Positions 6,509 to 23,938 of a stretch of 32,836 bases of DNA are shown here, one piece after another (positions within the stretch are counted from its first letter, which is position 1; each line of letters starts with the position of its first letter). Source of the DNA: Giardia intestinalis (taxonomy: Eukaryota); NCBI GenBank assembly GCA_000002435.2, contig AACB03000007.1; one strand, 5' to 3'. The notes under the pieces are model-generated. The model searched no databases and had not been told where the DNA came from. It saw nothing but the letters and a program-made list of their open reading frames with translations. A program made the translations under genes and the position numbers.

Positions 6509-6568
6509 CTCACTCCACTATCATACTATCACCCTCTATCACACATTGTACAGCATTCACTACCCAAG
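6509..6568 (-). promoter_or_regulatory. Inter-VSP spacer (60 nt) with a poly(A) signal at 6555..6561.
   Basis: Same conserved spacer. Confidence 0.7.
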
Positions 6569-8320
6569 TCACGCCTTCCCCCTGCACACGAACCACCAGC
6601 AGAGGAAGCCCACGAGGCCCCCCACGACAGCGATGACAGCGACGGAGATCCCCGCGATGGCCCCCGTGGAGAGCCCGCCCCTGTTGGTACTCATAGACAC
6701 ACAGGAGGTCCCACTGCTGTCTAGACTGTACCCATCAACACACTCCCCACACACATCATCCACCACACAGCTCTTGCAGTCACTCACAGAGCACAGCACA
6801 CACCCACTACCATCCCTGTTGGGCTTCTTACTACTGTCACAAGAGGTACACACAGCGACAGTCATACCAGCCCCAGTCAGAGCTGCTGGGGCTGTACACT
6901 GCGAACAGCCATCCACCCCCACATATGCCTTAGAGGTATCACCAGTGCCTACTAGTGTGCCAAGGGAGTTGCTACATGCCAATACAGACTGATTCTGATT
7001 GGTTGCCCCAGGGACTATGAAGTACCTATTGTTGGCATTAACAGCGGTACAGACACCGTTGGCTGCTGTCTTGCACATATGTTGTCCAGGTACTGTATCA
7101 ACCTTGTAACAACCTCCCATATACAAGAAGTAGTTGTTAGTGCATTGTGTACATACACCTTGATCACATTGATTATTTGCTTTAGCACTATTACACTTCC
7201 CATCTATAGGATACGTATTAGCTTCTCCACAGTATGAGCAATAATGATGCTCTACACCCTTATCATCAATCACTATTGCATCGCAGGCACCAGAAGTTCC
7301 TCCACAGGCAGTATCATCTTCACAGATCTTGGTGCATGTGACAGAGCCAGTACTGCCCTCCTTGCGATAGTTAGGCTTACAGTCAGTGCACTTGAAAGCA
7401 CCGTTGTTAGAGCAGACACTGCAGCCTTCGCGACCCTTATCGTCTACGCTATCGCATGGGACGCACTTCTTCCCCTGTTGATCTGTAGTAGTTACTAAGA
7501 AGTATCCAGTCTTGCAGGTTTCACACTTATTTGGATCACCAGCAACAGAGCATGTGGCACAGTTATCACCACACTTGTCTGTACATGTACTAGTACCACT
7601 ATCAAAGAAGTATCCATCGAGACAGGCTGAGCAGGTTGGATTGTCACTTCCTGTTTTCGTACATGTCTTGCAGTTGGCCTTTCCTTCGTTACCAAGAGTT
7701 GAATCTGTCACATCACTACAAAGAGCACACGTTTTGTCCTCCTTCATAAATAAGGCCTCGTCAGCGCCCTCGCATCCTTCAAGCGTCTTCGCCACGCAGG
7801 TCGATGTCCCGTCGAGGGCCGTCCTGGGGGTCTTATTGGTCCCGCAGTTAGTGCACTTCGGCTTCCCCGTGGCCTTGTCGAAGGAGCATGCCGTGCACTC
7901 TGCGTGTATCGTACTACATGCCTTGCATGTTCCCGACTCCGGGTCAGCATAAGTGTTTCCATCGCATCCAGTATCTTGTACACATTGATTACTCTTCAGG
8001 TACTTCCCCTCTGGGCACGATGTACAATGATTCTGACCACTTCCATCGCAGGTCAGACAAGCTTCATTACATTTGACACATGTCTGAGAGTTCTTGTAGT
8101 ATCCATCTTGGCACTCTGTACACGTGGCAGGTCCTGGACTACTGTCTGACTTGGTACACTGTGCGCAGTTAGCCACCCCTGTATATCCATCTGCCCCATT
8201 GACATCATGACAGAGGATGCACTCACTACCAGGCTTCTGAGGTGTAACTGGGTTCTTGAACAGGCCGTTAGCTGTCTTACAAGCAGTGCACACTCCATCA
8301 CTGGCTGCTGTGCATATCAC
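6569..8320 (-). CDS. Unit 4: VSP paralog (583 codons, type c). It is intact and has no ATG.
   Basis: The ORF ends CRGKA then stop. Its start is GTG (8318-8320 cac) preceded by an in-frame TAG. The N-terminus is ICTAASDGVCTACKTANGLFKNPVTPQKPGSECILCHDVNG. The central ~430 aa are identical to unit 2. The C-terminal module is CDSSKKPNRDGSGCVLCSVSDCKSCVVDDVCGECVDGYSLDSSGTSCVSMSTNRGG. Confidence 0.85.
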   Translation of the reverse strand: MICTAASDGVCTACKTANGLFKNPVTPQKPGSECILCHDVNGADGYTGVANCAQCTKSDSSPGPATCTECQDGYYKNSQTCVKCNEACLTCDGSGQNHCTSCPEGKYLKSNQCVQDTGCDGNTYADPESGTCKACSTIHAECTACSFDKATGKPKCTNCGTNKTPRTALDGTSTCVAKTLEGCEGADEALFMKEDKTCALCSDVTDSTLGNEGKANCKTCTKTGSDNPTCSACLDGYFFDSGTSTCTDKCGDNCATCSVAGDPNKCETCKTGYFLVTTTDQQGKKCVPCDSVDDKGREGCSVCSNNGAFKCTDCKPNYRKEGSTGSVTCTKICEDDTACGGTSGACDAIVIDDKGVEHHYCSYCGEANTYPIDGKCNSAKANNQCDQGVCTQCTNNYFLYMGGCYKVDTVPGQHMCKTAANGVCTAVNANNRYFIVPGATNQNQSVLACSNSLGTLVGTGDTSKAYVGVDGCSQCTAPAALTGAGMTVAVCTSCDSSKKPNRDGSGCVLCSVSDCKSCVVDDVCGECVDGYSLDSSGTSCVSMSTNRGGLSTGAIAGISVAVIAVVGGLVGFLCWWFVCRGKA

Positions 8321-8387
8321 ACTCCACTATCACACATTATCACACTATCACCTTCTATCACACATTGTACAGCATTCACTACCTAAG
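8321..8387 (-). promoter_or_regulatory. Inter-VSP spacer (67 nt) with a poly(A) signal at 8374..8380. It carries an extra cacacattat insertion.
   Basis: The minus strand reads TGA CTTAGGT AGTGAAT. This is an exact match to the extended VSP 3' motif remembered as ACTYAGRTAGTRAAY. The CACTATCA tract is longer here. Confidence 0.7.
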
Positions 8388-10211
8388 TCACGCCTTCCCC
8401 CTGCACACGAACCACCAGCAGAGGAAGCCCACGAGGCCCCCCACGACAGCGATGACAGCCACGGAGATCCCTGCTATGGCACCAGTACTGAGGCCGCTTC
8501 TGTTGCCCCCGCTGGGCTTGGTGGACACGCACGCCTCACCCTCCAGCCTGTAGTCGTCCCCGCACTGGCCGCACTTGTTCTCCTCGCTGCACCTGACGCA
8601 CCCGTCGATATTGCAGGCGATGCACTTCGTTCCGTCTGTGTTCGGCCTCTGGTCTTTACTGGTACAGGCCTCGCACTTATCGCCTGCTCCACAGTGCGAG
8701 CATCCGTCAACGGTACATGCGAAGCACCCGCTCCCAGCCAGGTTGGGCTTGTTGTTGTTGGTACACGCTGTACACACAGCAGCAGTCATGCCACCATCAG
8801 ATGGAGCTGCTGGGGCTGTACACTGTGAACAGTTGAGTACCCCCACGTATGCCTTAGCAGTATCACCAGTGCCTACTAGTGTGCCTAGGGGGTTCTCGCA
8901 GGCCAGGACAGACTGATCAGTATTGGATGCCCCCGGGACCAGGAAGTACCGGCCGTTCTCGCTGGGGGCGGTGCACCTCCCTCCCTCGGCAGTCTTGCAC
9001 ATGTGGCTGCCAGGAGCCTTCGACACATCATAGCAGCCGCCCATGTACAGGAAGAACCCGGCAGCACACCGGGTGCAGACGCCATTGGCACAGGTGTTGT
9101 CACCCTTAGTTCCTGTGCAGATCCCATCGATGGGGAACGTGGCGGGGTCTCCGCACAGCGAGCAGTACTGGGAGAACGCCCCGGCGCTGTCAACGACGAC
9201 CGCCCCGCAGGCCCCAGACGTCCCCCCGCAGGCCGTGGGGTCCTCGCAGGCCTTTGTGCACTTCACCGGATTGGTTCCCTCCTTGCGATAGTTGGACTTG
9301 CAATCGGTGCATGTAGGGGTTAGGCCGCTGTTACATTGGGAGCACCCCTCGATGCCATTGTCGGCTTTACTGTCGCAGGCGAAGCACTTACCAGCAGAGC
9401 CGGGTTGTTTCATGAAGAATCCAGGCTTGCATTTAGTGCACTGATCATTGCCAGCAGCAGAGCATGTAGCACAGTTGGCACCGCAAGCTGTGCATGTATC
9501 AGAACCAAAGTATCCGTCGAGGCAAGCTGAGCAGGTCGGCTTGGCTCCGTTCTTCTTACACGTTTTACAATTAGCAATCCCCTTGTCGTTTGCTTCTGTT
9601 CCTGTTGTTGTATCACTGCATAATATGCACTTGGTGCTATCATCACTCAGAAAGTGGGATCCGTCGACGTTATCTGTTGCGCACCCAGCATCATCGACGC
9701 AAGTGGTTGTCCCATCCAGCTCTGTCTTCACCTTCTTATTGTTACAGGCGGTGCACTGGGGCTTGCTGACAGTCGTGTTGTACTCACACGCGGTGCAATC
9801 TGCTATACCAGACTCCTTGCATGTCATTGTCATAGGGTCAGCATAAGTGTTTCCAGTGCATCCATCACTATTCACGCATGCATTATCCTTCAGGAACGTA
9901 TTTCCCTTACAAGAGGTACACTGGGTCGCCGATGTCTCACAGGTCAGACAAGTACCATCACATTTGGTACATGCCTGAGAGTCCATGTAGTACCCATCTT
10001 GACACTCGGTGCACGTGGCCGCTCCTGTATTGCCACCAGGTGCCGTGCACTTGAGACAGTTGGCCACTCCCTTGTTCTCATTCGCTCCTGTGGCATCATG
10101 ACAGAGGATGCACTCCCCACCAGGGGTCACCTTGTCTGCCCCATTCTGGAATATGTACTGACTATCTGTATTACAAGCAGTGCACAGTCCTCCCTCAGCC
10201 TTTGTGCATAT
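8388..10211 (-). CDS. Unit 5: VSP paralog (about 607 codons, type d). It is intact and has no ATG.
   Basis: ORF 8388..10130 starts at a GTG (reading VTPGGE). The frame is open upstream to 10211 with ICTKAEGGLCTACNTDSQYIFQNGADKVTPGGECILCHD. It ends in ..WWFVCRGKA then stop. The C-terminal module is identical to unit 2 ([90 protein letters not shown]). Confidence 0.85.
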   Translation of the reverse strand: MCTKAEGGLCTACNTDSQYIFQNGADKVTPGGECILCHDATGANENKGVANCLKCTAPGGNTGAATCTECQDGYYMDSQACTKCDGTCLTCETSATQCTSCKGNTFLKDNACVNSDGCTGNTYADPMTMTCKESGIADCTACEYNTTVSKPQCTACNNKKVKTELDGTTTCVDDAGCATDNVDGSHFLSDDSTKCILCSDTTTGTEANDKGIANCKTCKKNGAKPTCSACLDGYFGSDTCTACGANCATCSAAGNDQCTKCKPGFFMKQPGSAGKCFACDSKADNGIEGCSQCNSGLTPTCTDCKSNYRKEGTNPVKCTKACEDPTACGGTSGACGAVVVDSAGAFSQYCSLCGDPATFPIDGICTGTKGDNTCANGVCTRCAAGFFLYMGGCYDVSKAPGSHMCKTAEGGRCTAPSENGRYFLVPGASNTDQSVLACENPLGTLVGTGDTAKAYVGVLNCSQCTAPAAPSDGGMTAAVCTACTNNNKPNLAGSGCFACTVDGCSHCGAGDKCEACTSKDQRPNTDGTKCIACNIDGCVRCSEENKCGQCGDDYRLEGEACVSTKPSGGNRSGLSTGAIAGISVAVIAVVGGLVGFLCWWFVCRGKA

Positions 10212-10271
10212 CTCACTCCACTATCATACTATCACCCTCTATCACACATTGTACAGCATTCACTACCTAAG
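10212..10271 (-). promoter_or_regulatory. Inter-VSP spacer (60 nt) with a poly(A) signal at 10258..10264.
   Basis: TGA CTTAGGT AGTGAAT variant. Same tract. Confidence 0.7.
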
Positions 10272-13200
10272 TCACGCCTTCCCCCTGCACACGAACCACC
10301 AACACAAGAAGCCCACGAGGCCCCCCACGACAGCGATGACAGCCACGGAGATCCCTGCTATGGCACCAGTACTGAGGCCGCTCTTGTTGACGCTTCCGCC
10401 GGTGTTGTCGCCAGTGCCGTCGCCCATCACGAAGCACATGAACGCACCGGTGGATGACACCGTGCACTGCCTGCACCCAGCGAGCCCCTCAGAGCACGGA
10501 TTACACTTTGTCCCAGCACTCTGCGGTTTGTAATATCCAGTGCTGCATGTAGCACAGGCGTTAGCGTCGTTAGCAGCCGTGCATGTCTCGCAGCTAAGAT
10601 GGCACCTTTTATTGGAACAATCGCCATTATCAGCCGTTAGACCACTGGCACATTTTGTACATTTTCCTCCCTGCACTGTAGTACACACTTGCTTGCCAGG
10701 CTGTCTATCTGTCTGATAGCAACCGCCATCTTTGAGGAAGTAGTTATTTTCACATTGAGTGCATGCTCCATTACTCACCGTAGTGCAAAATCGTGTTCGC
10801 GTATTGGCCGCACAGTTGCCATCCAGTGGTGCCTGTTGAGTGTTCTTGCACTTTGAGCAGTATGCAGTTCCTCCTATCTGAGCCCCACACTCTGCGCATC
10901 CATCGTTTGTAGAACTCACGCTGCACTGGTTCATGCACGTGCCCCCATTGGCAGGAGTATCAGCATCTGTATACTGAAGCATCCTCCCAGCAGGACAAGC
11001 CGTACACTTATCAGCGCCCTCACCCTTGCACTCTACGCACGCATCGTTGCACTTCTTGCACTTTCTGTCAGTGTCATTTCCGTAGTAGCCCTTGAGGGTC
11101 GTGCAGTCAGATACGCATTGACTGGTTGGGGTGAGGTAGTACTCAGACAGACACTTTGTACAGACCTCCTTATCGGCACCTTCACTGGTGCACTCCAAAC
11201 AGTGCTCTGTGTTACAGTTACTGATTGGTTGGCATTCAGTCGATTCAGTATTAGGTTGGAGTCCTTCGTTGCACTCGCACACTTGGCTATCCTGTCCGGT
11301 GGCCTTGGGGGTAGAGTTAGCAGGGCAACTAGCAACGCACGACTTTCTGTTGAGACCAAAGATGGTCTTCGTATCAGTCGTACACGTCTTACAAACCACT
11401 CCGTTGGCGCCTTTCTCACAAGTGGTGCAGTCAGTTGTTCCAGCCGACACACATGTATTGCACTCCTTTGCTTCTTCATCAACGTAGTGGGTTGCCGGAC
11501 AACCAGCTGTGTCAACGCACGTGCCGGTTGTGGACTCGCCATCCTTCTTCAGGTACTTCTTGGTCCCAGACGTTTTACACAGGCTGCACTTCTGTTGCTC
11601 CTTGGCCACGCACACAGCGCAATTATCATCTGCACACGCGGTGCACTTCTTCTCGGTAGCGTCGATGAAGAAGCCCTCCTCATTAGTACACGCCTCTGCG
11701 CTAACACAGCTGGGTGCATCGCCAGCTTTAAAGTAGAATCCATCAACACACTCCCCACATATATTGTCCACCACACAGCTCTTGCAATCACCCACAGAGC
11801 ATGTCACACACCCACTACCACCCTTGTTGGGCTTCTTACCACTGTCACAGGCAGTACACACAGCGGCAGCCATACCAACTGTTGTTAGAGCTGCTGGGGC
11901 TGTACACTGGGAGCAGCCATGTACCCCCACATATGCCTTAGCGGTACCTTGAGGATCTACTAGTGTGCCTAGGGGGTTACTACATGCCAACACGGACTGC
12001 TGAGCATTGGATGCCCCTGGTACCAGGAAGTACTTATTATTCTCATTAACAGCGGTACAGACACCGTTGGCTGCTGTCTTGCACATGGACTTACCCGGCT
12101 GAGTTGACACACTATAACAACCACCCATGTATAGGAAGTATCCCGTAGTACATGATGTACATATATGATTATCACAAGTATTCCCATTCTTTTGACCACT
12201 ATCAACACACTTCCCATCAATTGGTATCTTATTGGTCTCTCCACAGTAGGAACAGTAGTGCTTTGTGGTGCCCTGATCATCAATTATCATGGCATCACAA
12301 GCACCAGAGGTACCCCCGCAGGCAGTATCATCCTCACAGGTTTTGGTACATGTAACAGGACTGGTACCGCTCTGCTTGTAGTTCGCTTTACAGCCAGTAC
12401 ACTTGAAAGTACTGGCCTCCTTTGTACACTCAGCACACCCATCGATGCCCCCATTGTTTGTGTCACTACATGAGATGCACTTTCCTGCCGGTTTTGCAAC
12501 CTCAACGAGGAAGAACCCTGCCTTACAGGTCAGGCACTTATCCTCAGCAGTTTCAGCTGAGCATGTGGCACAGTTGGCGTGACAGGGGGTGCATGTTACT
12601 GAACCAACTCCGGTACTTTTGTATCCCTCCAGGCATTCTGTGCAAGTTGGATTAGCACTCGCTGTCTTCATGCAAGCCTTACAGCCAGCAATGCCTTTGT
12701 TCTTTTGTTCTGGATCCGACGCTGCGGGATCACTGCACAAACGACACACGTTGTCTTCGGTCATAAAGAGACCGTTATCAGCTCCTTGACACCCGGCGTA
12801 GTTCTTCGCCACGCAGGTCGAGGTTCCATCAAGGGTCGTCCTGGGGATCTTACTGCTATCACAAGCTGTGCACTTCGGCTTCTTGGTAGTCGAATCAACT
12901 TCACACTGGGTACATGCTTGATCTATCGTGTTGCAGTCCCTACAAGTTCCCGACTCTGGGTCAGCATAAGTGTTTCCAGTGCACTCATTACTATTCACGC
13001 ATGCATTATCCTTCAGGAACGTATTTCCCTTACAAGAGGTACACTGGGTCGCCGACGTCTCACAGGTCAGGCAAGAGTCGTTGCACTTCTCACATGCGCC
13101 GTTACTATTTAGAAAGTATCCCTCTGTGCATGCAGTACACGTGGCAGCCCCCTTGTTACTGTCTGGCGCTGTGCATGTGGCGCAGCTCTCCACTCCCTTA

Positions 13201-13340
13201 TATCCATTCGCTCCTGTGGCATCATGACAGAGTATGCACTCCCCACCAGGGGTCACCTTGTCTGCCCCATTCTGGAATATGTACTGACTATCTGTATTAC
13301 AAGCAGTGCACAGTCCTCCCTCAGCCTTTGTGCATATCAC
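10272..13340 (-). CDS. Unit 6: long double-core VSP (1022 codons). It is intact and has no ATG.
   Basis: A single ORF runs from a GTG start (13338-13340) to the CRGKA stop. It has two GGCY modules: YMGGCYSVSTQPG encoded near 12100-12140, and KDGGCYQTDRQPG encoded near 10700-10740. About 440 extra Cys-rich residues are inserted between the usual C-terminal module and the TM/CRGKA tail. Confidence 0.85.
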   Translation of the reverse strand: MICTKAEGGLCTACNTDSQYIFQNGADKVTPGGECILCHDATGANGYKGVESCATCTAPDSNKGAATCTACTEGYFLNSNGACEKCNDSCLTCETSATQCTSCKGNTFLKDNACVNSNECTGNTYADPESGTCRDCNTIDQACTQCEVDSTTKKPKCTACDSSKIPRTTLDGTSTCVAKNYAGCQGADNGLFMTEDNVCRLCSDPAASDPEQKNKGIAGCKACMKTASANPTCTECLEGYKSTGVGSVTCTPCHANCATCSAETAEDKCLTCKAGFFLVEVAKPAGKCISCSDTNNGGIDGCAECTKEASTFKCTGCKANYKQSGTSPVTCTKTCEDDTACGGTSGACDAMIIDDQGTTKHYCSYCGETNKIPIDGKCVDSGQKNGNTCDNHICTSCTTGYFLYMGGCYSVSTQPGKSMCKTAANGVCTAVNENNKYFLVPGASNAQQSVLACSNPLGTLVDPQGTAKAYVGVHGCSQCTAPAALTTVGMAAAVCTACDSGKKPNKGGSGCVTCSVGDCKSCVVDNICGECVDGFYFKAGDAPSCVSAEACTNEEGFFIDATEKKCTACADDNCAVCVAKEQQKCSLCKTSGTKKYLKKDGESTTGTCVDTAGCPATHYVDEEAKECNTCVSAGTTDCTTCEKGANGVVCKTCTTDTKTIFGLNRKSCVASCPANSTPKATGQDSQVCECNEGLQPNTESTECQPISNCNTEHCLECTSEGADKEVCTKCLSEYYLTPTSQCVSDCTTLKGYYGNDTDRKCKKCNDACVECKGEGADKCTACPAGRMLQYTDADTPANGGTCMNQCSVSSTNDGCAECGAQIGGTAYCSKCKNTQQAPLDGNCAANTRTRFCTTVSNGACTQCENNYFLKDGGCYQTDRQPGKQVCTTVQGGKCTKCASGLTADNGDCSNKRCHLSCETCTAANDANACATCSTGYYKPQSAGTKCNPCSEGLAGCRQCTVSSTGAFMCFVMGDGTGDNTGGSVNKSGLSTGAIAGISVAVIAVVGGLVGFLCWWFVCRGKA

Positions 13341-13397
13341 ACTCCACTATCATACTATCACCCTCTATCACACATTGTACAGCATTCACTACCCAAG
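13341..13397 (-). promoter_or_regulatory. Inter-VSP spacer (57 nt) with a poly(A) signal at 13384..13390.
   Basis: Same conserved spacer. Confidence 0.7.
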
Positions 13398-15146
13398 TCA
13401 CGCCTTCCCCCTGCACACGAACCACCAGCAGAGGAAGCCCACGAGGCCCCCCACGACGACGACCACGGCCACGGAGATCCCCGCGATGGCCCCCGTGGAG
13501 AGCCCGCCCCTGTTGGTACTCATAGACACACAGGAGGTCCCACTGCTGTCTAGACTGTACCCATCAACACACTCCCCACACACATCATCCACCACACAGC
13601 TCTTGCAGTCACTCACAGAGCACAGCACACACCCACTACCATCCCTGTTGGGCTTCTTACTACTGTCACAAGAGGTACACACAGCGACAGTCATACCAGC
13701 CCCAGTCAGAGCTGCTGGGGCTGTACACTGCGAACAGCCATCCACCCCCACATATGCCTTAGAGGTATCACCAGTGCCTACTAGTGTGCCAAGGGAGTTG
13801 CTACATGCCAATACAGACTGATTCTGATTGGTTGCCCCAGGGACTATGAAGTACCTATTGTTGGCATTAACAGCGGTACAGACACCGTTGGCTGCTGTCT
13901 TGCACATATGTTGTCCAGGTACTGTATCAACCTTGTAACAACCTCCCATATACAAGAAGTAGTTGTTAGTGCATTGTGTACATACACCTTGATCACATTG
14001 ATTATTTGCTTTAGCACTATTACACTTCCCATCTATAGGATACGTATTAGCTTCTCCACAGTATGAGCAATAATGATGCTCTACACCCTTATCATCAATC
14101 ACTATTGCATCGCAGGCACCAGAAGTTCCTCCACAGGCAGTATCATCTTCACAGATCTTGGTGCATGTGACAGAGCCAGTACTGCCCTCCTTGCGATAGT
14201 TAGGCTTACAGTCAGTGCACTTGAAAGCACCGTTGTTAGAGCAGACACTGCAGCCTTCGCGACCCTTATCGTCTACGCTATCGCATGGGACGCACTTCTT
14301 CCCCTGTTGATCTGTAGTAGTTACTAAGAAGTATCCAGTCTTGCAGGTTTCACACTTATTTGGATCACCAGCAACAGAGCATGTGGCACAGTTATCACCA
14401 CACTTGTCTGTACATGTACTAGTACCACTATCAAAGAAGTATCCATCGAGACAGGCTGAGCAGGTTGGATTGTCACTTCCTGTTTTCGTACATGTCTTGC
14501 AGTTGGCCTTTCCTTCGTTACCAAGAGTTGAATCTGTCACATCACTACAAAGAGCACACGTTTTGTCCTCCTTCATAAATAAGGCCTCGTCAGCGCCCTC
14601 GCATCCTTCAAGCGTCTTCGCCACGCAGGTCGATGTCCCGTCGAGGGCCGTCCTGGGGGTCTTATTGGTCCCGCAGTTAGTGCACTTCGGCTTCCCCGTG
14701 GCCTTGTCGAAGGAGCATGCCGTGCACTCTGCGTGTATCGTACTACATGCCTTGCATGTTCCCGACTCCGGGTCAGCATAAGTGTTTCCATCGCATCCAG
14801 TATCTTGTACACATTGATTACTCTTCAGGTACTTCCCCTCTGGGCACGATGTACAATGATTCTGACCACTTCCATCGCAGGTCAGACAAGCGTCATTACA
14901 TTTGACACATGTCTGAGAGTTCTTGTAGTATCCATCTTGGCACTCTGTACACGTGGCAGGTCCTGGACTACTGTCTGACTTGGTACACTGTGCGCAGTTA
15001 GCCACCCCTGTATATCCATCTGCCCCATTGACATCATGACAGAGGATGCACTCACTACCAGGCTTCTGAGGTGTAACTGGGTTCTTGAACAGGCCGTTAG
15101 CTGTCTTACAAGCAGTGCACAGTCCTCCCTCAGCCTTTGTGCATAT
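13398..15146 (-). CDS. Unit 7: VSP paralog (about 582 codons, type c). It is intact and has no ATG.
   Basis: ORF 13398..15005 starts at a GTG (..GVANCAQC). The frame is open upstream to 15146 (ICTKAEGGLCTACKTANGLFKNPVTPQKPGSECILCHDVNGADGYTG). It is almost identical to unit 4. The TM region is slightly different (AVVVVVGG). It ends CRGKA then stop. Confidence 0.85.
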   Translation of the reverse strand: MCTKAEGGLCTACKTANGLFKNPVTPQKPGSECILCHDVNGADGYTGVANCAQCTKSDSSPGPATCTECQDGYYKNSQTCVKCNDACLTCDGSGQNHCTSCPEGKYLKSNQCVQDTGCDGNTYADPESGTCKACSTIHAECTACSFDKATGKPKCTNCGTNKTPRTALDGTSTCVAKTLEGCEGADEALFMKEDKTCALCSDVTDSTLGNEGKANCKTCTKTGSDNPTCSACLDGYFFDSGTSTCTDKCGDNCATCSVAGDPNKCETCKTGYFLVTTTDQQGKKCVPCDSVDDKGREGCSVCSNNGAFKCTDCKPNYRKEGSTGSVTCTKICEDDTACGGTSGACDAIVIDDKGVEHHYCSYCGEANTYPIDGKCNSAKANNQCDQGVCTQCTNNYFLYMGGCYKVDTVPGQHMCKTAANGVCTAVNANNRYFIVPGATNQNQSVLACSNSLGTLVGTGDTSKAYVGVDGCSQCTAPAALTGAGMTVAVCTSCDSSKKPNRDGSGCVLCSVSDCKSCVVDDVCGECVDGYSLDSSGTSCVSMSTNRGGLSTGAIAGISVAVVVVVGGLVGFLCWWFVCRGKA

Positions 15147-15206
15147 CTCACTCCACTATCATACTATCACCCTCTATCACACATTGTACAGCATTCACTA
15201 CCCAAG
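15147..15206 (-). promoter_or_regulatory. Inter-VSP spacer (60 nt) with a poly(A) signal at 15193..15199.
   Basis: Same conserved spacer. Confidence 0.7.
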
Positions 15207-17072
15207 TCACGCCTTCCCTCTACATATGAACCACCAGCAGAGGAAGCCCACGAGGCCCCCCACGACAGCGATGACAGCCACGGAGATCCCCGCGATGGCC
15301 CCCGTGGAGAGCCCGCTCCTGTTGGTGCCAGAGGACACACACATGCCATCCCTCGGGACATAGCCCTCCTCGCACTCCCCGCAGACGCCCTCTGCGCTGC
15401 ACCGCATGCACCTCTCTATGTCACAGACAATGCACTGGGTGCCGTCCAGGCTGGGTCTCTGGTCTTTATTGGTACATGCCTCACACTTGTTGTCTGCGCT
15501 GCAGTGAGAGCAGCCCTGGGCCGGACACACATAGCAGGTGCTTCCAGCCATGTTGGGCTTCTTATTGTCCTCAGCACACACCTCGCACATCCCGTCGATG
15601 GCGCAGCTCTTGCACCCGCCGACCGCACACAGGGTGCACCCGCTGCCATCCTTGTTGGGCTTCTTCGTCTTGTCGCACGCACTACAGACCGCCGCGGCCA
15701 TCGCATTGGCGGCTGGCGCCTGCGGGGCCGCGCACGCCGTGCAGTCTAGCACGCCGACGTACGCCTTGTCGCCCGCGGTCGCTCCCACAGGGTTGCCACA
15801 GGCAAGCACGGACTGCTGAGCAGCAGAGTCCCCAGGAATCTTGAAGTAGCGCCCGACCGGTGTGGTGCAGAACCCACTTGGAGCCGCAGAGCACATGAGG
15901 TTGCCAGGAGCCTTCGACACATCATAGCAACCACCCATATAGAGGAAGTAGTTGTTGGTGCACCGCGTACATACGCCATCGGCGCAGGTATTACCTGCAA
16001 GTGCATTGGTGCACTTCCCATTAATAGGGCCATAGCCGGCGCCAACACACTTTGAACAGTAAGAGAGCATGCTGCCGTCGTTGCCGACCACGATGGCGTC
16101 GCAGGCCCCTGCTGTCCCTCCACATGCAGTCTCATCTTCACAGGTCTTTGTACATGTGAGGTCGCTAGGTTCTCCGCTGGGTCTGTAGTTGGGCTTACAT
16201 TCAGTGCATTTGAGGGACCCCACGCCGCCTGTGCACTCGGCACAGCCTGGAATCCCACTTGTCTCGTCATCACAGAGAACGCATGTCTTAGGCGGGCCAT
16301 CCTTAAGGAAGTACCCCGGCATGCATCTTGTACATGTGTTGATTTGACCCGCTGTTCCGCACTCTGCGCAGTTTCCTGTGCAGGCCTCGCAGGCGTTTCC
16401 GTTGACTTTATACCCGTCGACACAAGCCTCGCAGGTGCCTTTTGCGGTGCACAGCTTGCAGTTCTGGACTCCGCCCTTACCATTGTCGCCGCACTGCACG
16501 CACTTCGAGGCGTCGTAGAAGTGCGTCTTGCCCACTTTGCACTCGGCCTCATCAACACAGGTCGTTGTCCCATCCAGCTCGTCTCTGACCGTCTTACTAC
16601 CGCAGTCGGTGCACTTCGGCTTTCCCGTGGCGTCGTCGTATGCACACGCGGTGCATCCTTGTATCTCACTGCAGGCCTTACAGGTCCAGGTCTTCTTGTC
16701 CGCATAGTTACCATTGTCACATCCACCAGCATCTACACAAGTGTTACCATCCTTCAGGTACTTCCCCTCAACGCAGGCGGTACACTGAGTCGGAGTATCA
16801 GCTGAGCAAGCAGAGCAGCCGTCTCCGCACTTCACACATGCACTGTCCTTCGTAACGAACCCTGCTTGACACTCTGTACACGTGGCCGGTCCGCTAGTGC
16901 CCGTGTGGGAGCATTCTGAGCATCCAGCGACTCCCATGACCCCGTTTCTATTTATAGTATCGGAGCACAGTATGCACTCACTACCCTTCTCTGGTGTTGC
17001 AGCCGGGTTCTTGAACAGGCCGTTAGCTGCCTTACAAGCAGTGCACAGTCCTCCCTCAGCCTTTGTGCATAT
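15207..17072 (-). CDS. Unit 8: VSP paralog (type b, about 621 codons). Its protein is essentially identical to unit 3, and it has the internal ATG at 16935-16937.
   Basis: ORF 15207..16937 matches the unit 3 ORF except for one V/I in the TM. The frame is open upstream to 17072 (..CSDTINRNGVMGVAG). It ends WWFICRGKA then stop. Confidence 0.85.
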   Translation of the reverse strand: MCTKAEGGLCTACKAANGLFKNPAATPEKGSECILCSDTINRNGVMGVAGCSECSHTGTSGPATCTECQAGFVTKDSACVKCGDGCSACSADTPTQCTACVEGKYLKDGNTCVDAGGCDNGNYADKKTWTCKACSEIQGCTACAYDDATGKPKCTDCGSKTVRDELDGTTTCVDEAECKVGKTHFYDASKCVQCGDNGKGGVQNCKLCTAKGTCEACVDGYKVNGNACEACTGNCAECGTAGQINTCTRCMPGYFLKDGPPKTCVLCDDETSGIPGCAECTGGVGSLKCTECKPNYRPSGEPSDLTCTKTCEDETACGGTAGACDAIVVGNDGSMLSYCSKCVGAGYGPINGKCTNALAGNTCADGVCTRCTNNYFLYMGGCYDVSKAPGNLMCSAAPSGFCTTPVGRYFKIPGDSAAQQSVLACGNPVGATAGDKAYVGVLDCTACAAPQAPAANAMAAAVCSACDKTKKPNKDGSGCTLCAVGGCKSCAIDGMCEVCAEDNKKPNMAGSTCYVCPAQGCSHCSADNKCEACTNKDQRPSLDGTQCIVCDIERCMRCSAEGVCGECEEGYVPRDGMCVSSGTNRSGLSTGAIAGISVAVIAVVGGLVGFLCWWFICRGKA

Positions 17073-17132
17073 CTCACTCCACTATCATACTATCACCCTC
17101 TATCACACATTGTACAGCATTCACTACCCAAG
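17073..17132 (-). promoter_or_regulatory. Inter-VSP spacer (60 nt) with a poly(A) signal at 17119..17125.
   Basis: Same conserved spacer. Confidence 0.7.
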
Positions 17133-18941
17133 TCACGCCTTCCCCCTGCACACGAACCACCAGCAGAGGAAGCCCACGAGGCCCCCCACGACAGCGATGA
17201 CAGCGACGGAGATCCCTGCTATGGCACCAGTACTGAGGCCGCTCTTGTTGGTGCCAGAGGACGCACAGGAGGTCCCACTGCTGTCAGGGCTGTATCCATC
17301 GTTGCACACACAGACAGAGTCGGTGTCAGTGGAGTTGCTGGGGCAGCTATCCACGCATGACTTCCTTCCAGGGCTCACCTTCTTACCACTACTGCATGCC
17401 TCGCACATGTTGTCCATATCACAGTGCGAGCATCCACTAACGGTACATGGGAAGCACCCGCTCCCAGCCAGGTTGGGCTTGTTGTTGTTGGTACACGCTG
17501 TGCACGTGGCGGCAGTCATGCCACCATCAGATGGAGCTGCTGGGGCCGTACATGCCGAACAGCCATCTACCCCCACATATGCCTTAGAGGTATCACCAGT
17601 GCCTACTAGTGTGCCTAGGGGGTTCTCGCAGGCCAGGACAGACTGATCAGTATTGGATGCCCCCGGGACCAGGAAGTACCGGCCGTTCTCGCTGGGGGCG
17701 GTGCACCTCCCTCCCTCGGCAGTCTTGCACATGTGGCTGCCAGGAGCCTTCGACACATCATAGCAGCCGCCCATGTACAGGAAGAACCCGGCAGCACACC
17801 GGGTGCAGACGCCATTGGCACAGGTGTTGTCACCCTTAGTTCCTGTGCAGATCCCATCGATGGGGAACGTGGCGGGGTCTCCGCACAGCGAGCAGTACTG
17901 GGAGAACGCCCCGGCGCTGTCAACGACGACCGCCCCGCAGGCCCCAGACGTCCCCCCGCAGGCCGTGGGGTCCTCGCAGGCCTTTGTGCACTTCACCGGA
18001 TTGGTTCCCTCCTTGCGATAGTTGGACTTGCAATCGGTGCATGTAGGGGTTAGGCCGCTGTTACATTGGGAGCACCCCTCGATGCCATTGTCGGCTTTAC
18101 TGTCGCAGGCGAAGCACTTACCAGCAGAGCCGGGTTGTTTCATGAAGAATCCAGGCTTGCATTTAGTGCACTGATCATTGCCAGCAGCAGAGCATGTAGC
18201 ACAGTTGGCACCGCAAGCTGTGCATGTATCAGAACCAAAGTATCCGTCGAGGCAAGCTGAGCAGGTCGGCTTGGCTCCGTTCTTCTTACACGTTTTACAA
18301 TTAGCAATCCCCTTGTCGTTTGCTTCTGTTCCTGTTGTTGTATCACTGCATAATATGCACTTGGTGCTATCATCACTCAGAAAGTGGGATCCGTCGACGT
18401 TATCTGTTGCGCACCCAGCATCATCGACGCAAGTGGTTGTCCCATCCAGCTCTGTCTTCACCTTCTTATTGTTACAGGCGGTGCACTGGGGCTTGCTGAC
18501 AGTCGTGTTGTACTCACACGCGGTGCAATCTGCTATACCAGACTCCTTGCATGTCATTGTCATAGGGTCAGCATAAGTGTTTCCAGTGCATCCATCACTA
18601 TTCACGCATGCATTATCCTTCAGGAACGTATTTCCCTTACAAGAGGTACACTGGGTCGCCGATGTCTCACAGGTCAGACAAGTACCATCACATTTGGTAC
18701 ATGCCTGAGAGTCCATGTAGTACCCATCTTGACACTCGGTGCACGTGGCCGCTCCTGTATTGCCACCAGGTGCCGTGCACTTGAGACAGTTGGCCACTCC
18801 CTTGTTCTCATTCGCTCCTGTGGCATCATGACAGAGGATGCACTCCCCACCAGGGGTCACCTTGTCTGCCCCATTCTGGAATATGTACTTGTTATCTGCC
18901 TTACAAGCAGTGCACAGTCCTCCCTCAGCCTTTGTGCATAT
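17133..18941 (-). CDS. Unit 9: VSP paralog (about 602 codons). It combines a type d N-terminus and centre with a unique C-terminal module.
   Basis: ORF 17133..18860 is extended in frame to 18941 (ICTKAEGGLCTACKADNKYIFQNGADKVTPGGE..). The C-terminal module [73 protein letters not shown] is not seen in any other unit. It ends CRGKA then stop. Confidence 0.85.
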   Translation of the reverse strand: MCTKAEGGLCTACKADNKYIFQNGADKVTPGGECILCHDATGANENKGVANCLKCTAPGGNTGAATCTECQDGYYMDSQACTKCDGTCLTCETSATQCTSCKGNTFLKDNACVNSDGCTGNTYADPMTMTCKESGIADCTACEYNTTVSKPQCTACNNKKVKTELDGTTTCVDDAGCATDNVDGSHFLSDDSTKCILCSDTTTGTEANDKGIANCKTCKKNGAKPTCSACLDGYFGSDTCTACGANCATCSAAGNDQCTKCKPGFFMKQPGSAGKCFACDSKADNGIEGCSQCNSGLTPTCTDCKSNYRKEGTNPVKCTKACEDPTACGGTSGACGAVVVDSAGAFSQYCSLCGDPATFPIDGICTGTKGDNTCANGVCTRCAAGFFLYMGGCYDVSKAPGSHMCKTAEGGRCTAPSENGRYFLVPGASNTDQSVLACENPLGTLVGTGDTSKAYVGVDGCSACTAPAAPSDGGMTAATCTACTNNNKPNLAGSGCFPCTVSGCSHCDMDNMCEACSSGKKVSPGRKSCVDSCPSNSTDTDSVCVCNDGYSPDSSGTSCASSGTNKSGLSTGAIAGISVAVIAVVGGLVGFLCWWFVCRGKA

Positions 18942-19001
18942 CTCACTCCACTATCATACTATCACCCTCTATCACACATTGTACAGCATTCACTACCCAA
19001 G
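18942..19001 (-). promoter_or_regulatory. Inter-VSP spacer (60 nt) with a poly(A) signal at 18988..18994.
   Basis: Same conserved spacer. Confidence 0.7.
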
Positions 19002-20744
19002 TCACGCCTTCCCCCTGCACACGAACCACCAGCAGAGGAAGCCCACGAGGCCCCCCACGACGACGACCACAGCGACGGAGATCCCCGCGATGGCCCCCGT
19101 GGAGAGCCCGCTCCTGTTGGTACTCATAGACACACAGGAGGTCCCACTGCTGTCTAGACTGTACCCATCAACACACTCCCCACACACATCATCCACCACA
19201 CAGCTCTTGCAATCACCCACAGAGCACAGCACACACCCGGTGCCATCCTTGTTGGGCTTCTTATCACTGTCACAGGAGGTGCATGTAGCGGCAGTCATAC
19301 CACCATCAGACAGAGCTGTTGGGGCCGTGCATGCTGAGCAGTTGAGTACCCCAACGTATGCCTTAGAGGTATCACCAGTGCCTACTAGTGTGCCAAGGGA
19401 GTTGCTACATGCTAATACAGACTGATTCTGATTGGTTGCCCCAGGGACTACGAAGTACCTATTGTTGGCATTAACAGCGGTACAGACACCGTTGGCTGCT
19501 GTCTTGCACATATGTTGTCCAGGTACTGTATCAACCTTGTAACAACCTCCCATATACAAGAAGTAGTTGTTAGTGCATTGTGTACATACACCTTGATCAC
19601 ATTGATTATTTGCTTTAGCACTATTACACTTCCCATCTATAGGATACGTATTAGCTTCTCCACAGTATGAGCAATAATGATGCTCTACACCCTTATCATC
19701 AATCACTATTGCATCGCAGGCACCAGAAGTTCCTCCACAGGCAGTATCATCTTCACAGATCTTGGTGCATGTGACAGAGCCAGTACTGCCCTCCTTGCGA
19801 TAGTTAGGCTTACAGTCAGTGCACTTGAAAGCACCGTTGTTAGAGCAGACACTGCAGCCTTCGCGACCCTTATCGTCTACGCTATCGCATGGGACGCACT
19901 TCTTCCCCTGTTGATCTGTAGTAGTTACTAAGAAGTATCCAGTCTTGCAGGTTTCACACTTATTTGGATCACCAGCAACAGAGCATGTGGCACAGTTATC
20001 ACCACACTTGTCTGTACATGTACTAGTACCACTATCAAAGAAGTATCCATCGAGACAGGCTGAGCAGGTTGGATTGTCACTTCCTGTTTTCGTACATGTC
20101 TTGCAGTTGGCCTTTCCTTCGTTACCAAGAGTTGAATCTGTCACATCACTACAAAGAGCACACGTTTTGTCCTCCTTCATAAATAAGGCCTCGTCAGCGC
20201 CCTCGCATCCTTCAAGCGTCTTCGCCACGCAGGTCGATGTCCCGTCGAGGGCCGTCCTGGGGGTCTTATTGGTCCCGCAGTTAGTGCACTTCGGCTTCCC
20301 CGTGGCCTTGTCGAAGGAGCATGCCGTGCACTCTGCGTGTATCGTACTACATGCCTTGCATGTTCCCGACTCCGGGTCAGCATACTTATCATTACCACAG
20401 CTATCAGTACATTGATTCCCATTGAGGTACTTCCCCTCTGGACACGATGTGCACTGGGTCGCCGATGTCTCACAGGTGGCACAGTTCCCCTCGCATGGCT
20501 TACAAAGCTTGTTGTTTAGGAAGTACCCCTCTTGACAGGTATTACACGTGGCAGGTCCTGCATTCCCTGGTGCCGTACACTTGAGACAGTTGGCCACTCC
20601 CGTATATCCATTCGCTCCCTTGATATCAGAGCACAAGATGCACTCCCCACCAGGAGTCACCTTGTCTGCCCTGTTCTGGAATATGTACTGACTATCTGTA
20701 TTACAAGCAGTGCACACTCCACTACTGGCCTTTGTGCATATCAC
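19002..20744 (-). CDS. Unit 10: VSP paralog (580 codons). It combines a type a N-terminus with a type c-like C-terminus.
   Basis: The start is GTG (20742-20744) preceded by TAG. The N-terminus is ICTKASSGVCTACNTDSQYIFQNRADKVTPGGECILCSDIKG. The C-terminal module is CDSDKKPNKDGTGCVLCSVGDCKSCVVDDVCGECVDGYSLDSSGTSCVSMSTNRSG. It ends CRGKA then stop. Confidence 0.85.
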   Translation of the reverse strand: MICTKASSGVCTACNTDSQYIFQNRADKVTPGGECILCSDIKGANGYTGVANCLKCTAPGNAGPATCNTCQEGYFLNNKLCKPCEGNCATCETSATQCTSCPEGKYLNGNQCTDSCGNDKYADPESGTCKACSTIHAECTACSFDKATGKPKCTNCGTNKTPRTALDGTSTCVAKTLEGCEGADEALFMKEDKTCALCSDVTDSTLGNEGKANCKTCTKTGSDNPTCSACLDGYFFDSGTSTCTDKCGDNCATCSVAGDPNKCETCKTGYFLVTTTDQQGKKCVPCDSVDDKGREGCSVCSNNGAFKCTDCKPNYRKEGSTGSVTCTKICEDDTACGGTSGACDAIVIDDKGVEHHYCSYCGEANTYPIDGKCNSAKANNQCDQGVCTQCTNNYFLYMGGCYKVDTVPGQHMCKTAANGVCTAVNANNRYFVVPGATNQNQSVLACSNSLGTLVGTGDTSKAYVGVLNCSACTAPTALSDGGMTAATCTSCDSDKKPNKDGTGCVLCSVGDCKSCVVDDVCGECVDGYSLDSSGTSCVSMSTNRSGLSTGAIAGISVAVVVVVGGLVGFLCWWFVCRGKA

Positions 20745-20822
20745 ACTCCACTATCACACTATCATCACACTATCACCCTCTATCACACACTATCACCCAT
20801 TGTACAGCATTCACTACCCAAG
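20745..20822 (-). promoter_or_regulatory. Inter-VSP spacer (78 nt, the longest) with a poly(A) signal at 20809..20815.
   Basis: The plus strand is actccactatcacactatcatcacactatcaccctctatcacacactatcacccattgtacagcattcact. It carries extra CACTATCA-like repeat units. Confidence 0.7.
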
Positions 20823-23800
20823 TCACGCCTTCCCCCTGCACACGAACCACCAGCAGAGGAAGCCCACGAGGCCCCCCACGACAGCGATGACAGCCACGGA
20901 GATCCCTGCTATGGCACCAGTACTGAGGCCGCTCTTGTTGACGCTTCCGCCGGTGTTGTCGCCAGTGCCGTCGCCCATCACGAAGCACATGAACGCACCG
21001 GTGGATGACACCGTGCACTGCCTGCACCCAGCGAGCCCCTCAGAGCACGGATTACACTTTGTCCCAGCACTCTGCGGTTTGTAATATCCAGTGCTGCATG
21101 TAGCACAGGCGTTAGCGTCGTTAGCAGCCGTGCATGTCTCGCAGCTAAGATGGCACCTTTTATTGGAACAATCGCCATTATCAGCCGTTAGACCACTGGC
21201 ACATTTTGTACATTTTCCTCCCTGCACTGTAGTACACACTTGCTTGCCAGGCTGTCTATCTGTCTGATAGCAACCGCCATCTTTGAGGAAGTAGTTATTT
21301 TCACATTGAGTGCATGCTCCATTACTCACCGTAGTGCAAAATCGTGTTCGCGTATTGGCCGCACAGTTGCCATCCAGTGGTGCCTGTTGAGTGTTCTTGC
21401 ACTTTGAGCAGTATGCAGTTCCTCCTATCTGAGCCCCACACTCTGCGCATCCATCGTTTGTAGAACTCACGCTGCACTGGTTCATGCACGTGCCCCCATT
21501 GGCAGGAGTATCAGCATCTGTATACTGAAGCATCCTCCCAGCAGGACAAGCCGTACACTTATCAGCGCCCTCACCCTTGCACTCTACGCACGCATCGTTG
21601 CACTTCTTGCACTTTCTGTCAGTGTCATTTCCGTAGTAGCCCTTGAGGGTCGTGCAGTCAGATACGCATTGACTGGTTGGGGTGAGGTAGTACTCAGACA
21701 GACACTTTGTACAGACCTCCTTATCGGCACCTTCACTGGTGCACTCCAAACAGTGCTCTGTGTTACAGTTACTGATTGGTTGGCATTCAGTCGATTCAGT
21801 ATTAGGTTGGAGTCCTTCGTTGCACTCGCACACTTGGCTATCCTGTCCGGTGGCCTTGGGGGTAGAGTTAGCAGGGCAACTAGCAACGCACGACTTTCTG
21901 TTGAGACCAAAGATGGTCTTCGTATCAGTCGTACACGTCTTACAAACCACTCCGTTGGCGCCTTTCTCACAAGTGGTGCAGTCAGTTGTTCCAGCCGACA
22001 CACATGTATTGCACTCCTTTGCTTCTTCATCAACGTAGTGGGTTGCCGGACAACCAGCTGTGTCAACGCACGTGCCGGTTGTGGACTCGCCATCCTTCTT
22101 CAGGTACTTCTTGGTCCCAGACGTTTTACACAGGCTGCACTTCTGTTGCTCCTTGGCCACGCACACAGCGCAATTATCATCTGCACACGCGGTGCACTTC
22201 TTCTCGGTAGCGTCGATGAAGAAGCCCTCCTCATTAGTACACGCCTCTGCGCTAACACAGCTGGGTGCATCGCCAGCTTTAAAGTAGAATCCATCAACAC
22301 ACTCCCCACATATATTGTCCACCACACAGCTCTTGCAATCACCCACAGAGCATGTCACACACCCACTACCACCCTTGTTGGGCTTCTTACCACTGTCACA
22401 GGCAGTACACACAGCGGCAGTCATACCAGCTGTTGTTAGAGCTGCGGGGCTGTACACTGGGAGCAGCCATGTACCCCCACATATGCCTTAGCGGTACCTT
22501 GAGGATCTACTAGTGTGCCTAGGGGGTTACTACATGCCAACACGGACTGCTGAGCATTGGATGCCCCTGGTACCAGGAAGTACTTATTATTCTCATTAAC
22601 AGCGGTACAGACACCGTTGGCTGCTGTCTTGCACATATGTTGTCCAGGTGGACTCTGAGTGCTATAACAACCACCCATATATAAGAAATATCCTGTAGTA
22701 CAAGACTCACAGACATGGTTGTTACAAGTATTACTTTGAGCCTCACTAGCACAGAGACCATCTATAGGATACTTACTGCTATCCCCACAGTATGAACAGT
22801 AGTGCTTTGTGGTGCCCTGATCATCTATTATCATGGCATCACAAGCACCAGAGGTACCCCCACAGGCAGTATCATCTTCACATACCTTTGTACATGTAAC
22901 AGGACTGGTACCACTCTGCTTGCGATAGTTCACCTTACAGTCAGTACACTTGAAAGTACTGGCCTCCATTGTGCATTGGGAGCACCCCTCGATGCCCCCA
23001 TTGTTTGTGTCATCGCAGGCGAAGCATTCTCCAGGAGTGCTACTGACCTTCAGGAAGAACCCGGTCTTGCAGGTTTGGCATTTGGTCTTGTCAGCTTTTT
23101 CAGAACATGTGGCACAGTTAGCACCACAGGCCTCACACGTGGCGGCAGGGCCATTTCCTTCTTTGATATACCCTTCGAGGCATTCTATGCATTCTGGTTT
23201 CTGACTTTGCTGCTTAGTACATGTCTTGCAGCCGGCAATGCCTTTGTTCTTTGGTTCTGAATCCGACGCTGCGGGATCACTGCACAAACGACACACGTTG
23301 TCTTCGGTCATAAAGAGACCGTTATCAGCTCCTTGACACCCGGCGTAGTCTTTTGTCACACAGGTCGAGGTCCCATCAAGGGTCGTCCTGGGGGTCTTAT
23401 TGGTCCCGCAGTTGGTGCACCTTGGCTTTCCCGTGGCATCATTATATTCACATGCGGTGCACCCAGCTATGTCGGGATCACATGCCTTGCAGGTCCAGGT
23501 CTTCTTGTCTGCGTACTGGGTTGCCTCGCATCCACTAGCATCTACACATTGATTATTCTTCAGGTACTTCCCCTCAACGCAGGCGGTACACTGAGTCGGA
23601 GTATCAGCTGAGCAAGCAGAGCAGCCGTCTCCGCACTTCACACATGCACTGTCCTTCGTAACGAACCCTGCTTGACACTCTGTACACGTGGCCGGTCCGC
23701 TAGTGCCCGTGTGGGAGCATTCTGAGCATCCAGCGACTCCCATGACCCCGTTTCTATCTATAGTATCGGAGCACAAGATGCACTCACTACCAGGCTTCTG

Positions 23801-23878
23801 AGGTGTAACTGGGTTCTTGAACAGGCCGTTAGCTGTCTTACAAGCAGTGCACAGTCCTCCCTCAGCCTTTGTGCATAT
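20823..23878 (-). pseudogene. Unit 11: long-type VSP with a 1-nt deletion frameshift near 22447. It is split into two ORFs and has a type b N-terminus.
   Basis: ORF 22436..23776 (..HGCSQCTAPQL then stop) and ORF 20823..22457 (MYSPAALTTAGMTAAVCTAC.. to CRGKA) together are colinear with unit 6. Plus 22441-22452 reads gctgcggggctg, where unit 6 has gctgctggggctg at about 11891. The N-terminal part is open to 23878 and is of the MGVAGCSECSH type. Confidence 0.75.
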
Positions 23879-23938
23879 CTCACTCCACTATCATACTATC
23901 ACCCTCTATCACACATTGTACAGCATTCACTACCCAAG
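23879..23938 (-). promoter_or_regulatory. Inter-VSP spacer (60 nt) with a poly(A) signal at 23925..23931.
   Basis: Same conserved spacer. Confidence 0.7.

Follow-up and report, generated by a model that had tools for sequence, protein, structure and literature searches.

Modular mosaicism in a head-to-tail array of pseudo-VSP cassettes from Giardia intestinalis

Variant-specific surface proteins (VSPs), the antigens that Giardia varies to persist in the gut, are vaccine candidates, and the question at issue is whether the parasite's silent pseudo-VSPs, ~200 in all, are mere debris or a store of sequence for recombination. We address it with a stretch of 32,836 nucleotides (nt) from Giardia intestinalis (contig AACB03000007.1 of assembly GCA_000002435.2), hereafter the window, whose minus strand holds 16 VSP units arranged head-to-tail. 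Very probably, these units are pseudo-VSP cassettes of Giardia lamblia assemblage A, WB-like, that form a "linear array" and are mosaics made by recombination, mainly gene conversion. Loci of this kind, their recombination and the idea of a reservoir have been published before (Adam 2010; Xu 2020). Because the general phenomenon and the reservoir hypothesis are in the literature, the present finding refines a known picture, and what the array offers is a set of testable handles: its defined types of module, the 130-nt hot zone of exchange, the homogenised spacer and named intact genes with tracts nearly identical to those of specific cassettes.

Sixteen truncated VSP units and their spacers

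With the window cut at the CRGKA stops, we number the units U1 to U16 from the left. The ending ...CRGKA followed by a stop terminates 15 reading frames, all on the minus strand, and every long open reading frame (ORF) also lies on that strand; the units named in an earlier note, made from the sequence alone, are all recovered. U1 and U16 are severed by the window ends, and the head of the array, where published arrays have an intact VSP with upstream region and initiator, thus lies outside the window. The family assignment draws on several features. The Pfam model "Giardia variant-specific surface protein" (PF03302) matches the units that were tested (E = 5e-38 and 7e-81), the GGCY motif is found in every unit tested, and U2 has 76 cysteines and 28 CXXC motifs in 617 amino acids (aa). 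At 15 minus-strand ends, a transmembrane segment is followed by CRGKA and a stop, the arrangement that defines the VSP C-terminus. Database searches return VSPs of G. lamblia/intestinalis, among which XP_001705784.1 (ATCC 50803, WB) is ~99.5% identical to U2; the nearest full-length relatives are only ~60% identical. The units are as follows, with columns referring to the alignment described in the next section.

U1, 1-2737, minus strand: long-type pseudo-VSP cassette, 3' end lost at the window start; 15 differences from U6 in 2653 nt; several 1-nt indels near the window end.
U2, 2738-4642, minus strand: a-type N-terminus, centre and C module; 617-aa ORF, from spacer to CRGKA stop; 5 differences from U16 in 1352 nt.
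U3, 4643-6568, minus strand: b-type cassette, 624-aa ORF; 9 differences from U8 in 1926 nt, over the whole length; last 316 aa match KAE8304683.1 at 315/316.
U4, 6569-8387, minus strand: c-type N-terminus, a-type centre, c-type C module; 1 difference from U7 in 1651 nt from alignment column 106; a-type centre starts at column 459 (position 7951).
U5, 8388-10271, minus strand: d-type N-terminus and centre, a-type C module, breakpoint ~8885/8886; follows U9 for 1408 nt (5 differences; ~1400 nt with 5-6 in the composition map), then U13 for 498 nt (0); triplet p = 1e-119.
U6, 10272-13397, minus strand: long-type cassette, 1024-aa ORF, second GGCY in an extra ~440-aa ectodomain; C part 94% identical to XP_001707661.1.
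U7, 13398-15206, minus strand: c-type N-terminus, a-type centre, c-type C module; first ~105 columns of the common U1 type; triplet test for U1 joined to U4, p = 7e-27.
U8, 15207-17132, minus strand: b-type cassette, near-copy of U3.
U9, 17133-19001, minus strand: d-type N-terminus and centre, C module unique within the window; matches U5 up to column 1503; C module 91% identical to the C-terminus of the intact VSP GL50803_00114674.
U10, 19002-20822, minus strand: a-type N-terminus and centre, c-like C module, breakpoint ~19302/19303; follows U13 for 1382 nt (0 differences), then U14 for 226 nt (3); p = 1.5e-47.
U11, 20823-23938, minus strand: U7-like start, b-type N-terminus, own centre, long-type body, one 1-nt frameshift; body differs from U6 at 4 of 1779 nt; centre 97.7% identical to VSP S7 (AAN52102.1) over 434 aa.
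U12, 23939-25839, minus strand: b-type N-terminus, own centre, d-type centre, a-type C module, one 1-nt frameshift; follows U8 for 381 nt (1 difference) and U5 for 907 nt (10).
U13, 25840-27755, minus strand: a-type N-terminus, centre and C module, breakpoint ~26349/26350; first 1382 nt as in U10 (0 differences), next 510 nt as in U5 (3); triplet test for U10 joined to U5, p = 6e-118.
U14, 27756-29576, minus strand: c-type N-terminus, a-type centre, c-like C module; five 1-nt deletions at the 5' end.
U15, 29577-31484, minus strand: d-like N-terminus, own centre, a-type C module joined at column 1361 (position 30191); follows U5 for 351 nt (0 differences) and U2 for 615 nt (4); p = 6e-48.
U16, 31485-32836, minus strand: a-type centre and C module, 5' end lost at the window end; 5 differences from U2 in 1352 nt.

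The additional Cys-rich ectodomain of ~440 aa, with its second GGCY, precedes the transmembrane tail in the long units U6 (10272-11800), U1 (1-1200) and U11 (20823-22350). It shares 94% identity with the C part of the old-assembly protein XP_001707661.1, the N part of which resembles the U15 centre.

On the coding strand, each unit is preceded by a near-invariant spacer, which measures 60 nt in 11 of 15 cases and 70-81 nt in the other four.

Spacers, minus strand: 2678-2737, 4583-4642, 6509-6568, 8318-8387, 10212-10271, 13338-13397, 15147-15206, 17073-17132.
Spacers, continued, minus strand: 18942-19001, 20742-20822, 23879-23938, 25780-25839, 27685-27755, 29503-29576, 31425-31484.
Representative 60-nt spacer, 10212-10271, minus strand: VSP extended polyadenylation signal (CTTAGGTAGTGAATGC), then GTGATAG-type repeats, with stops in all frames.

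In all 15 spacers, the stop codon TGA is directly followed by CTT(G/A)GGTAGTGAATGC. The VSP-specific extended polyadenylation signal has been given as ACUUAGRUAGURAAYRY, about 6 nt past the stop (preprint 10.1101/2022.03.07.483299). Compared with this consensus, the signal is exact in 2 spacers, has one mismatch in 12 and is degraded by single-base deletions in the spacer between U15 and U14. Beyond the signal, every frame of the spacer is closed by stop codons. The longer spacers (8318-8387, 20742-20822, 27685-27755 and 29503-29576) owe their length to an expanded GTGATAG-type repeat with a period of about 10; this micro-repeat is the sole length-variable part of the inter-unit junction, and Tandem Repeats Finder detects nothing but the spacer micro-repeats.

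The ORFs begin right after the spacer with WS(E/V)ICT(K/A)A..G.CTAC and are open through to CRGKA in 11 of the 14 complete units (582-1024 codons). No unit has an ATG at the start of its ORF, the first in-frame Met lying at aa 48-194, and none has the signal peptide or the PyAatgTT initiator that mark the N-terminal end of a VSP gene. The ORF-start sequence is found in full-length VSPs, as SEICTAADKGVCTTC, at about residue 105, past the signal peptide and the first GGCY motif. Similarly, in an intact VSP gene from another assembly, nucleotide homology to the cassettes runs from ~290 nt past the ATG to 20 nt past the stop, and this gene carries the same 3' signal, TGACTyrGGTAGTGAATGCT.

Because the units lack ATG, initiator and signal peptide and start at the equivalent of residue ~105 of full-length VSPs, they are 5'-truncated, silent pseudo-VSP cassettes, none of which is able on its own to make a surface protein. 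The window has what characterises a pseudo-VSP array, namely at least three head-to-tail units, short spacers (60-81 nt here) and members without initiator, start codon or signal peptide. It also has what characterises an archive, that is, silent promoter-less cassettes between conserved homologous flanks. The earlier description of the locus as a "combinatorial generation of surface-protein diversity" is overstated in this respect: the units are silent, and any contribution to expressed diversity therefore needs transfer into an intact VSP gene.

Each spacer (e.g. 10212-10271) also contains CAATGTG, one base off PyAatgTT, followed by a 5-codon ORF (MCDRG-stop), which could be a decayed initiator or a coincidence.

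Module combinations and breakpoints

The 16 units were aligned with MAFFT and subjected to three analyses: window-wise clustering, a copying model in which each unit is a mosaic of the others, and a search for maximal near-identity tracts in all pairs. All three reproduce the module assignments of the earlier note, which had placed the mosaic at 8388-20744; the pattern is real, although that range covers units 5-10 only and the pattern fills the whole window. As proposed there, U9 joins the front of U5 to a different C module, U10 joins an a-type front to a c-type end, U11 combines a b-type N-terminus with the long body, and U12 combines a b-type N-terminus, a d-type centre and an a-type C-terminus. 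The C-terminal module that the note had quoted is exact in U2, U5, U13 and U16 and has small changes in U12 and U15. The central block said to be common to U2, U4, U7, U10, U13, U14 and U16 is identical at the protein level in the six complete units, and U16 holds its 3' part. Its length between the quoted motifs is, however, 306 aa rather than ~430, with nucleotide tracts of 971-1072 nt. The near-identity of shared segments also holds, with 0 differences in 1382 nt between U10 and U13, 0 in 498 between U5 and U13, 1 in 1651 between U4 and U7, and 9 in 1926 between U3 and U8.

Within segments, pairwise distances are bimodal, either 0-2.5% or 22-58%, and which units group together depends on the segment, N-terminal, central or C-terminal. 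Any one module has copies that lie 0-0.4% apart and are present in differing combinations. For example, the centres of U5 and U13 diverge by 41.6% and their C segments by 0.0%, and U4 and U2 diverge by 23.8% across the N segment and by 0.1% across the centre. For the pairwise homoplasy index we obtain 0.184, compared with 0.423 ± 0.003 under permutation (z = -82), and none of 1000 permutations reaches the observed value. Single-breakpoint triplet tests give p = 1e-27 to 1e-120. Together, the homoplasy index, the incongruent distances and the triplet tests strongly support repeated segmental recombination, as the earlier note had held, and exclude simple vertical divergence. The Hudson-Kaplan minimum number of recombination events (Rmin = 163) was not used to count events: with saturated sites between module types, recurrent mutation makes it too high.

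Where the tracts end is a separate matter. We distinguish 22 internal tract boundaries, which are not all independent events, so that the p-values on boundaries are approximate. The suggestion that boundaries coincide with CXXC-rich stretches fails, as only 1 of the 22 lies inside a conserved CXXC and 5 of the 22 fall within ±2 aa of one, compared with 38% expected; breakpoints at CXXC motifs were rejected for this lack of enrichment. Boundary sites are instead richer in invariant columns (0.50 compared with 0.38 overall, p = 2e-4), an excess that partly follows from the way they are constructed. Of the 22 boundaries, 9 are in columns 1450-1580, which make up 7% of the alignment (p = 1e-5). 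In U5 this zone lies as follows.

Recombination hot zone in U5, 8783-8913, minus strand: alignment columns 1450-1580, encoding the linker QSVLAC.NPLGTLVGTGDT.KAYVGV..CS.CTAP.

The hot zone is a 130-nt conserved, cysteine-poor linker downstream of the GGCY motif, and within it alternative patches of 5-45 nt are combined in many ways among the units.

The modules differ from the flanks that surround them. Between module types, the proportion of synonymous differences (pS) is 0.64-0.82, that is, synonymous sites are saturated, while the nonsynonymous proportion (pN) is ~0.3 and the ratio of nonsynonymous to synonymous rates (dN/dS) is below 0.25 where estimable; 35 of 37 Cys columns are conserved. 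The module types are old and shaped by selection on a folded ectodomain, because synonymous sites are saturated while the cysteines and the protein sequence are constrained. Across units, the median identity is 98.3% in the non-coding spacer and 95% in the 3' tail, compared with 54-65% between types in the centre. A shared truncation point and a uniform spacer thus surround anciently diverged centres, and duplication and drift are therefore insufficient: foreign modules must have been imported into an amplified scaffold, or the flanks continually homogenised, or both.

How the mosaics arose and what the array may do

We propose that a single truncated founder unit was amplified and that homologous recombination, mainly non-reciprocal gene conversion, would move modules among units and between the array and other VSP loci, in tracts of perhaps ~10 nt to ~1.8 kb. 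The same conversion process would keep the units alike in the spacer, at the 5' start and in the 3' tail, and exchange would be favoured where VSPs are all alike, in the ~250-nt tail-spacer-head junction and in the 130-nt cysteine-poor linker after GGCY. Less certainly, the array may act as a silent reservoir from which segments are occasionally copied, on an evolutionary time scale, into signal-peptide-bearing VSP genes, with routine antigen switching staying epigenetic.

The alternative that survives best concerns this last step. The array might be a graveyard of non-functional debris, in which the mosaicism stems from ectopic recombination among repeats and nothing is given to the expressed VSP repertoire. 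We regard this as a serious possibility, if still somewhat doubtful. The missing start codons and signal peptides, the frameshifts in U11, U12 and U14, and the lack of an intact counterpart for the commonest module all agree with it, and "remains of discarded vsp genes" is an alternative listed by Adam et al. (PMC2996952). Against it, most complete units keep their long ORFs open, Cys positions are conserved and dN/dS stays low between module types, and near-identical tracts of 125-316 aa are held in common with signal-peptide-bearing genes.

These tracts emerge when the cassettes are compared with retrieved Giardia proteins by exact 10-mer matching and global alignments, which give step-like mosaic identity profiles against annotated, signal-peptide-bearing WB genes. 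KAE8304683.1/XP_001705078.1 (748 aa, on a 4.02-Mb chromosome) is 30-67% identical to U3 over 430 residues and then matches it at 315 of 316 positions to the end (aa 433-748). XP_001707628.2 has 174 of 177 residues in common with U5/U9, and KAE8305264.1 is identical to the U5/U9 centre (8388-10271, 17133-19001) at 125 of 125 residues. Because of this last tract, exchange appears to cross the VSP/CRMP family boundary; the annotation of KAE8305264.1 is "high cysteine membrane protein", and its tail is YRGRK rather than CRGKA. GL50803_00114674 combines a b-type N module with the C module that is "unique" to U9 in the window, and XP_001707661.1, XP_001705627.1 and VSP S7, from the old assembly or GenBank, show further combinations of the array's modules. 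Some old-assembly and GenBank entries derive from arrays with a related spacer, read as "MLYSDSDS...FMGGCY". Housekeeping genes flank a stand-alone VSP of the assemblage A2 isolate DH (GCA_000498715.1; L002:6300-8453), whose nucleotide identity to the 3' three-quarters of U12 (23939-25374) is 92.3% over 1434 nt. The U12 order of own centre, d-type centre and a-type C module therefore exists as one intact gene. The DH gene was dismissed as a date for a transfer, being only 92% identical to U12.

Taken as a whole, these matches suggest transfer between cassettes and intact VSP genes. We entertain, tentatively, that the array is an active donor archive, in which expressible VSPs would be diversified by segmental conversion from the cassettes beside epigenetic switching, with the junction and the linker as preferred exchange points. 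If so, the array would be a functional analogue of mosaic variant surface glycoprotein (VSG) formation in trypanosomes, and the 315/316-aa tract between U3/U8 and KAE8304683.1 would be the footprint of a cassette-to-gene event.

Several points weigh against our interpretation of the locus. The link from cassettes to genes is one of protein identity, which gives neither direction nor date. The a-type centre, the most amplified module with seven copies (2738-4642, 6569-8387, 13398-15206, 19002-20822, 25840-29576, 31485-32836), has no counterpart among signal-peptide-bearing VSPs in the protein database (best 61%), and this lack is as compatible with amplification in a dead array as with a reservoir. 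VSP switching in Giardia is regarded as epigenetic by Adam et al. (PMC2996952), and the comparable arrays of G. muris are transcriptionally silent (PMC7641422). Finally, four units carry frameshifts or indels, and the window is possibly a long-read contig that was left unplaced and has error-prone ends, so that some junctions could be assembly products.

The mode of recombination can be addressed from the small differences between near-identical units. Those between U3 and U8 are tightly clustered (4 in 11 nt, 3 in 8 nt and none between), and 5 changes between U5 and U9 are packed into 11 nt; such clusters in near-identical units therefore point to short conversion tracts rather than point mutation. 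Many exchanges need two breakpoints, as where an a-type centre lies between c-type ends. Near-identity across two junctions never extends to the adjacent unit, the tracts ending in or near the spacer, and a search for co-linear neighbouring units as a trace of multi-unit duplication or recent unequal crossover found none in the array. We see no recent multi-unit duplications of the unequal-crossover type because near-identity never runs on to the next unit. We conclude that non-reciprocal conversion dominates, together with whole-unit replacement or shuffling via a universal junction, which consists of the ~111-nt 3' tail, the spacer and the ORF's initial ~45-100 nt (~250 nt overall). That the hybrid units instead arose by reciprocal, unequal crossing-over of misaligned units is unlikely. 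Tandem arrays that share such junction homology are prone to it, U5, U10 and U13 are simple two-part hybrids, and whole units look shuffled, with tracts ending at spacers; but the co-linear neighbours expected after a recent unequal crossover are seen at no junction pair, and the many double-breakpoint exchanges and the 5-45-nt patches within otherwise identical sequence do not agree with it.

A third possibility is that the mosaic arose in assembly, where a collapsed repeat family would have given a chimeric consensus. There is one 1-nt frameshift in each of U11 and U12, the first 125 nt of U14 contain five 1-nt deletions, and U1 and U16 have indels near the window ends. Single-base indels cluster at about 1-450, 29450-29576 and 32690-32836, with almost none elsewhere in the array, and this clustering suggests consensus errors or low-quality sequence. 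Besides this concentration at both window ends and in U14, the identical stretches of 1-1.8 kb would be difficult to assemble. We nevertheless consider an artefact very improbable: the junction of a-type centre and a-type C module is also found in the independent Sanger-era protein XP_001705784.1, further module combinations are seen in the old-assembly and GenBank entries named above, the reading frame is kept across junctions, and the same step-like mosaicism is seen against annotated VSPs on chromosomes.

Still less probable, indeed barely credible, is the view implied by the earlier note, that these are ordinary, expressed VSP genes and that the surface directly displays their diversity. 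Long intact ORFs, the transmembrane segment, the CRGKA tail and the polyadenylation signal are in its favour; a stop codon directly upstream of each ORF, the missing initiator and signal peptide, and a spacer with no room for a promoter are against it. Expression via trans-splicing or an internal start was considered and rejected, as the first in-frame Met is not followed by a signal peptide and the spacer, compared by eye with the Giardia 3' splice-site consensus and with no pattern search made, shows no match. Vertical divergence at rates that differ by segment has almost no chance of being correct, since only the generally higher conservation of VSP ends speaks for it, whereas the incongruent groupings (U5/U13, U4/U2), the homoplasy index and the triplet tests concur against it.

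Comparison with known arrays

When compared to the linear or pseudo-VSP arrays reported from WB (PMC2996952, PMC7000408, 10.1101/2022.03.07.483299), the window shows no difference in kind. Organism, family, head-to-tail layout and ~60-bp spacers are the same, and in both, downstream units have no initiator, start codon or signal peptide and keep the CRGKA tail and the extended polyadenylation signal. In WB, more than half of the vsp genes belong to "linear arrays" whose intergenic regions measure ~60 bp; downstream members lack the initiator, and some members have no start codon (Adam et al. 2010, PMC2996952). The same study detected recombination with GENECONV and proposed a cassette hypothesis. 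Pseudo-VSP arrays are also present in the PacBio WB reference (Xu et al. 2020, PMC7000408), a 2022 preprint describes pseudo-VSPs (pVSPs) as a possible sequence reservoir (10.1101/2022.03.07.483299), and a 2025 population study reports gene-conversion events enriched in VSPs. Our literature search on Giardia VSP arrays found no unit-by-unit module map of a 16-unit array, nor a description of the bimodal divergence, the linker hot zone, the 5-45-nt patches or the named intact-VSP tracts.

In G. muris, arrays of 5-23 VSP copies without signal peptides are telomeric, and there is phylogenetic evidence that these copies exchange sequence with intact VSPs (Xu et al. 2020, PMC7641422). Like the units in the window, these are silent copies, but they end in GCRGK and almost all adjoin telomeres, whereas the window's units end in CRGKA. 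The VSG arrays of Trypanosoma brucei are alike in outline (PMC13233330), with many promoter-less, often defective cassettes and mosaics formed via segmental conversion. Their conserved upstream 70-bp repeats and conserved 3' end are comparable to the window's flanks. In T. brucei, however, the protein family is unrelated, and switching is driven by transfer into a single expression site, which has been demonstrated; Giardia has no known expression site, its switching is deemed epigenetic and its cassette-to-gene transfer is inferred. Among bacteria, the msp2 pseudogenes of Anaplasma marginale and the vlsE/vmp systems of Borrelia likewise have 5'-truncated silent cassettes, conserved flanks and segmental recombination. 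They differ in having a single expression locus and unidirectional conversion that has been shown experimentally.

Outside the units themselves, the plus strand carries ORFs of 150-360 aa (e.g. 275-1228 and 30885-31976) that lie antisense to the units. A single one was tested and has no Pfam match, and these ORFs are probably a by-product of the composition bias of the coding strand.

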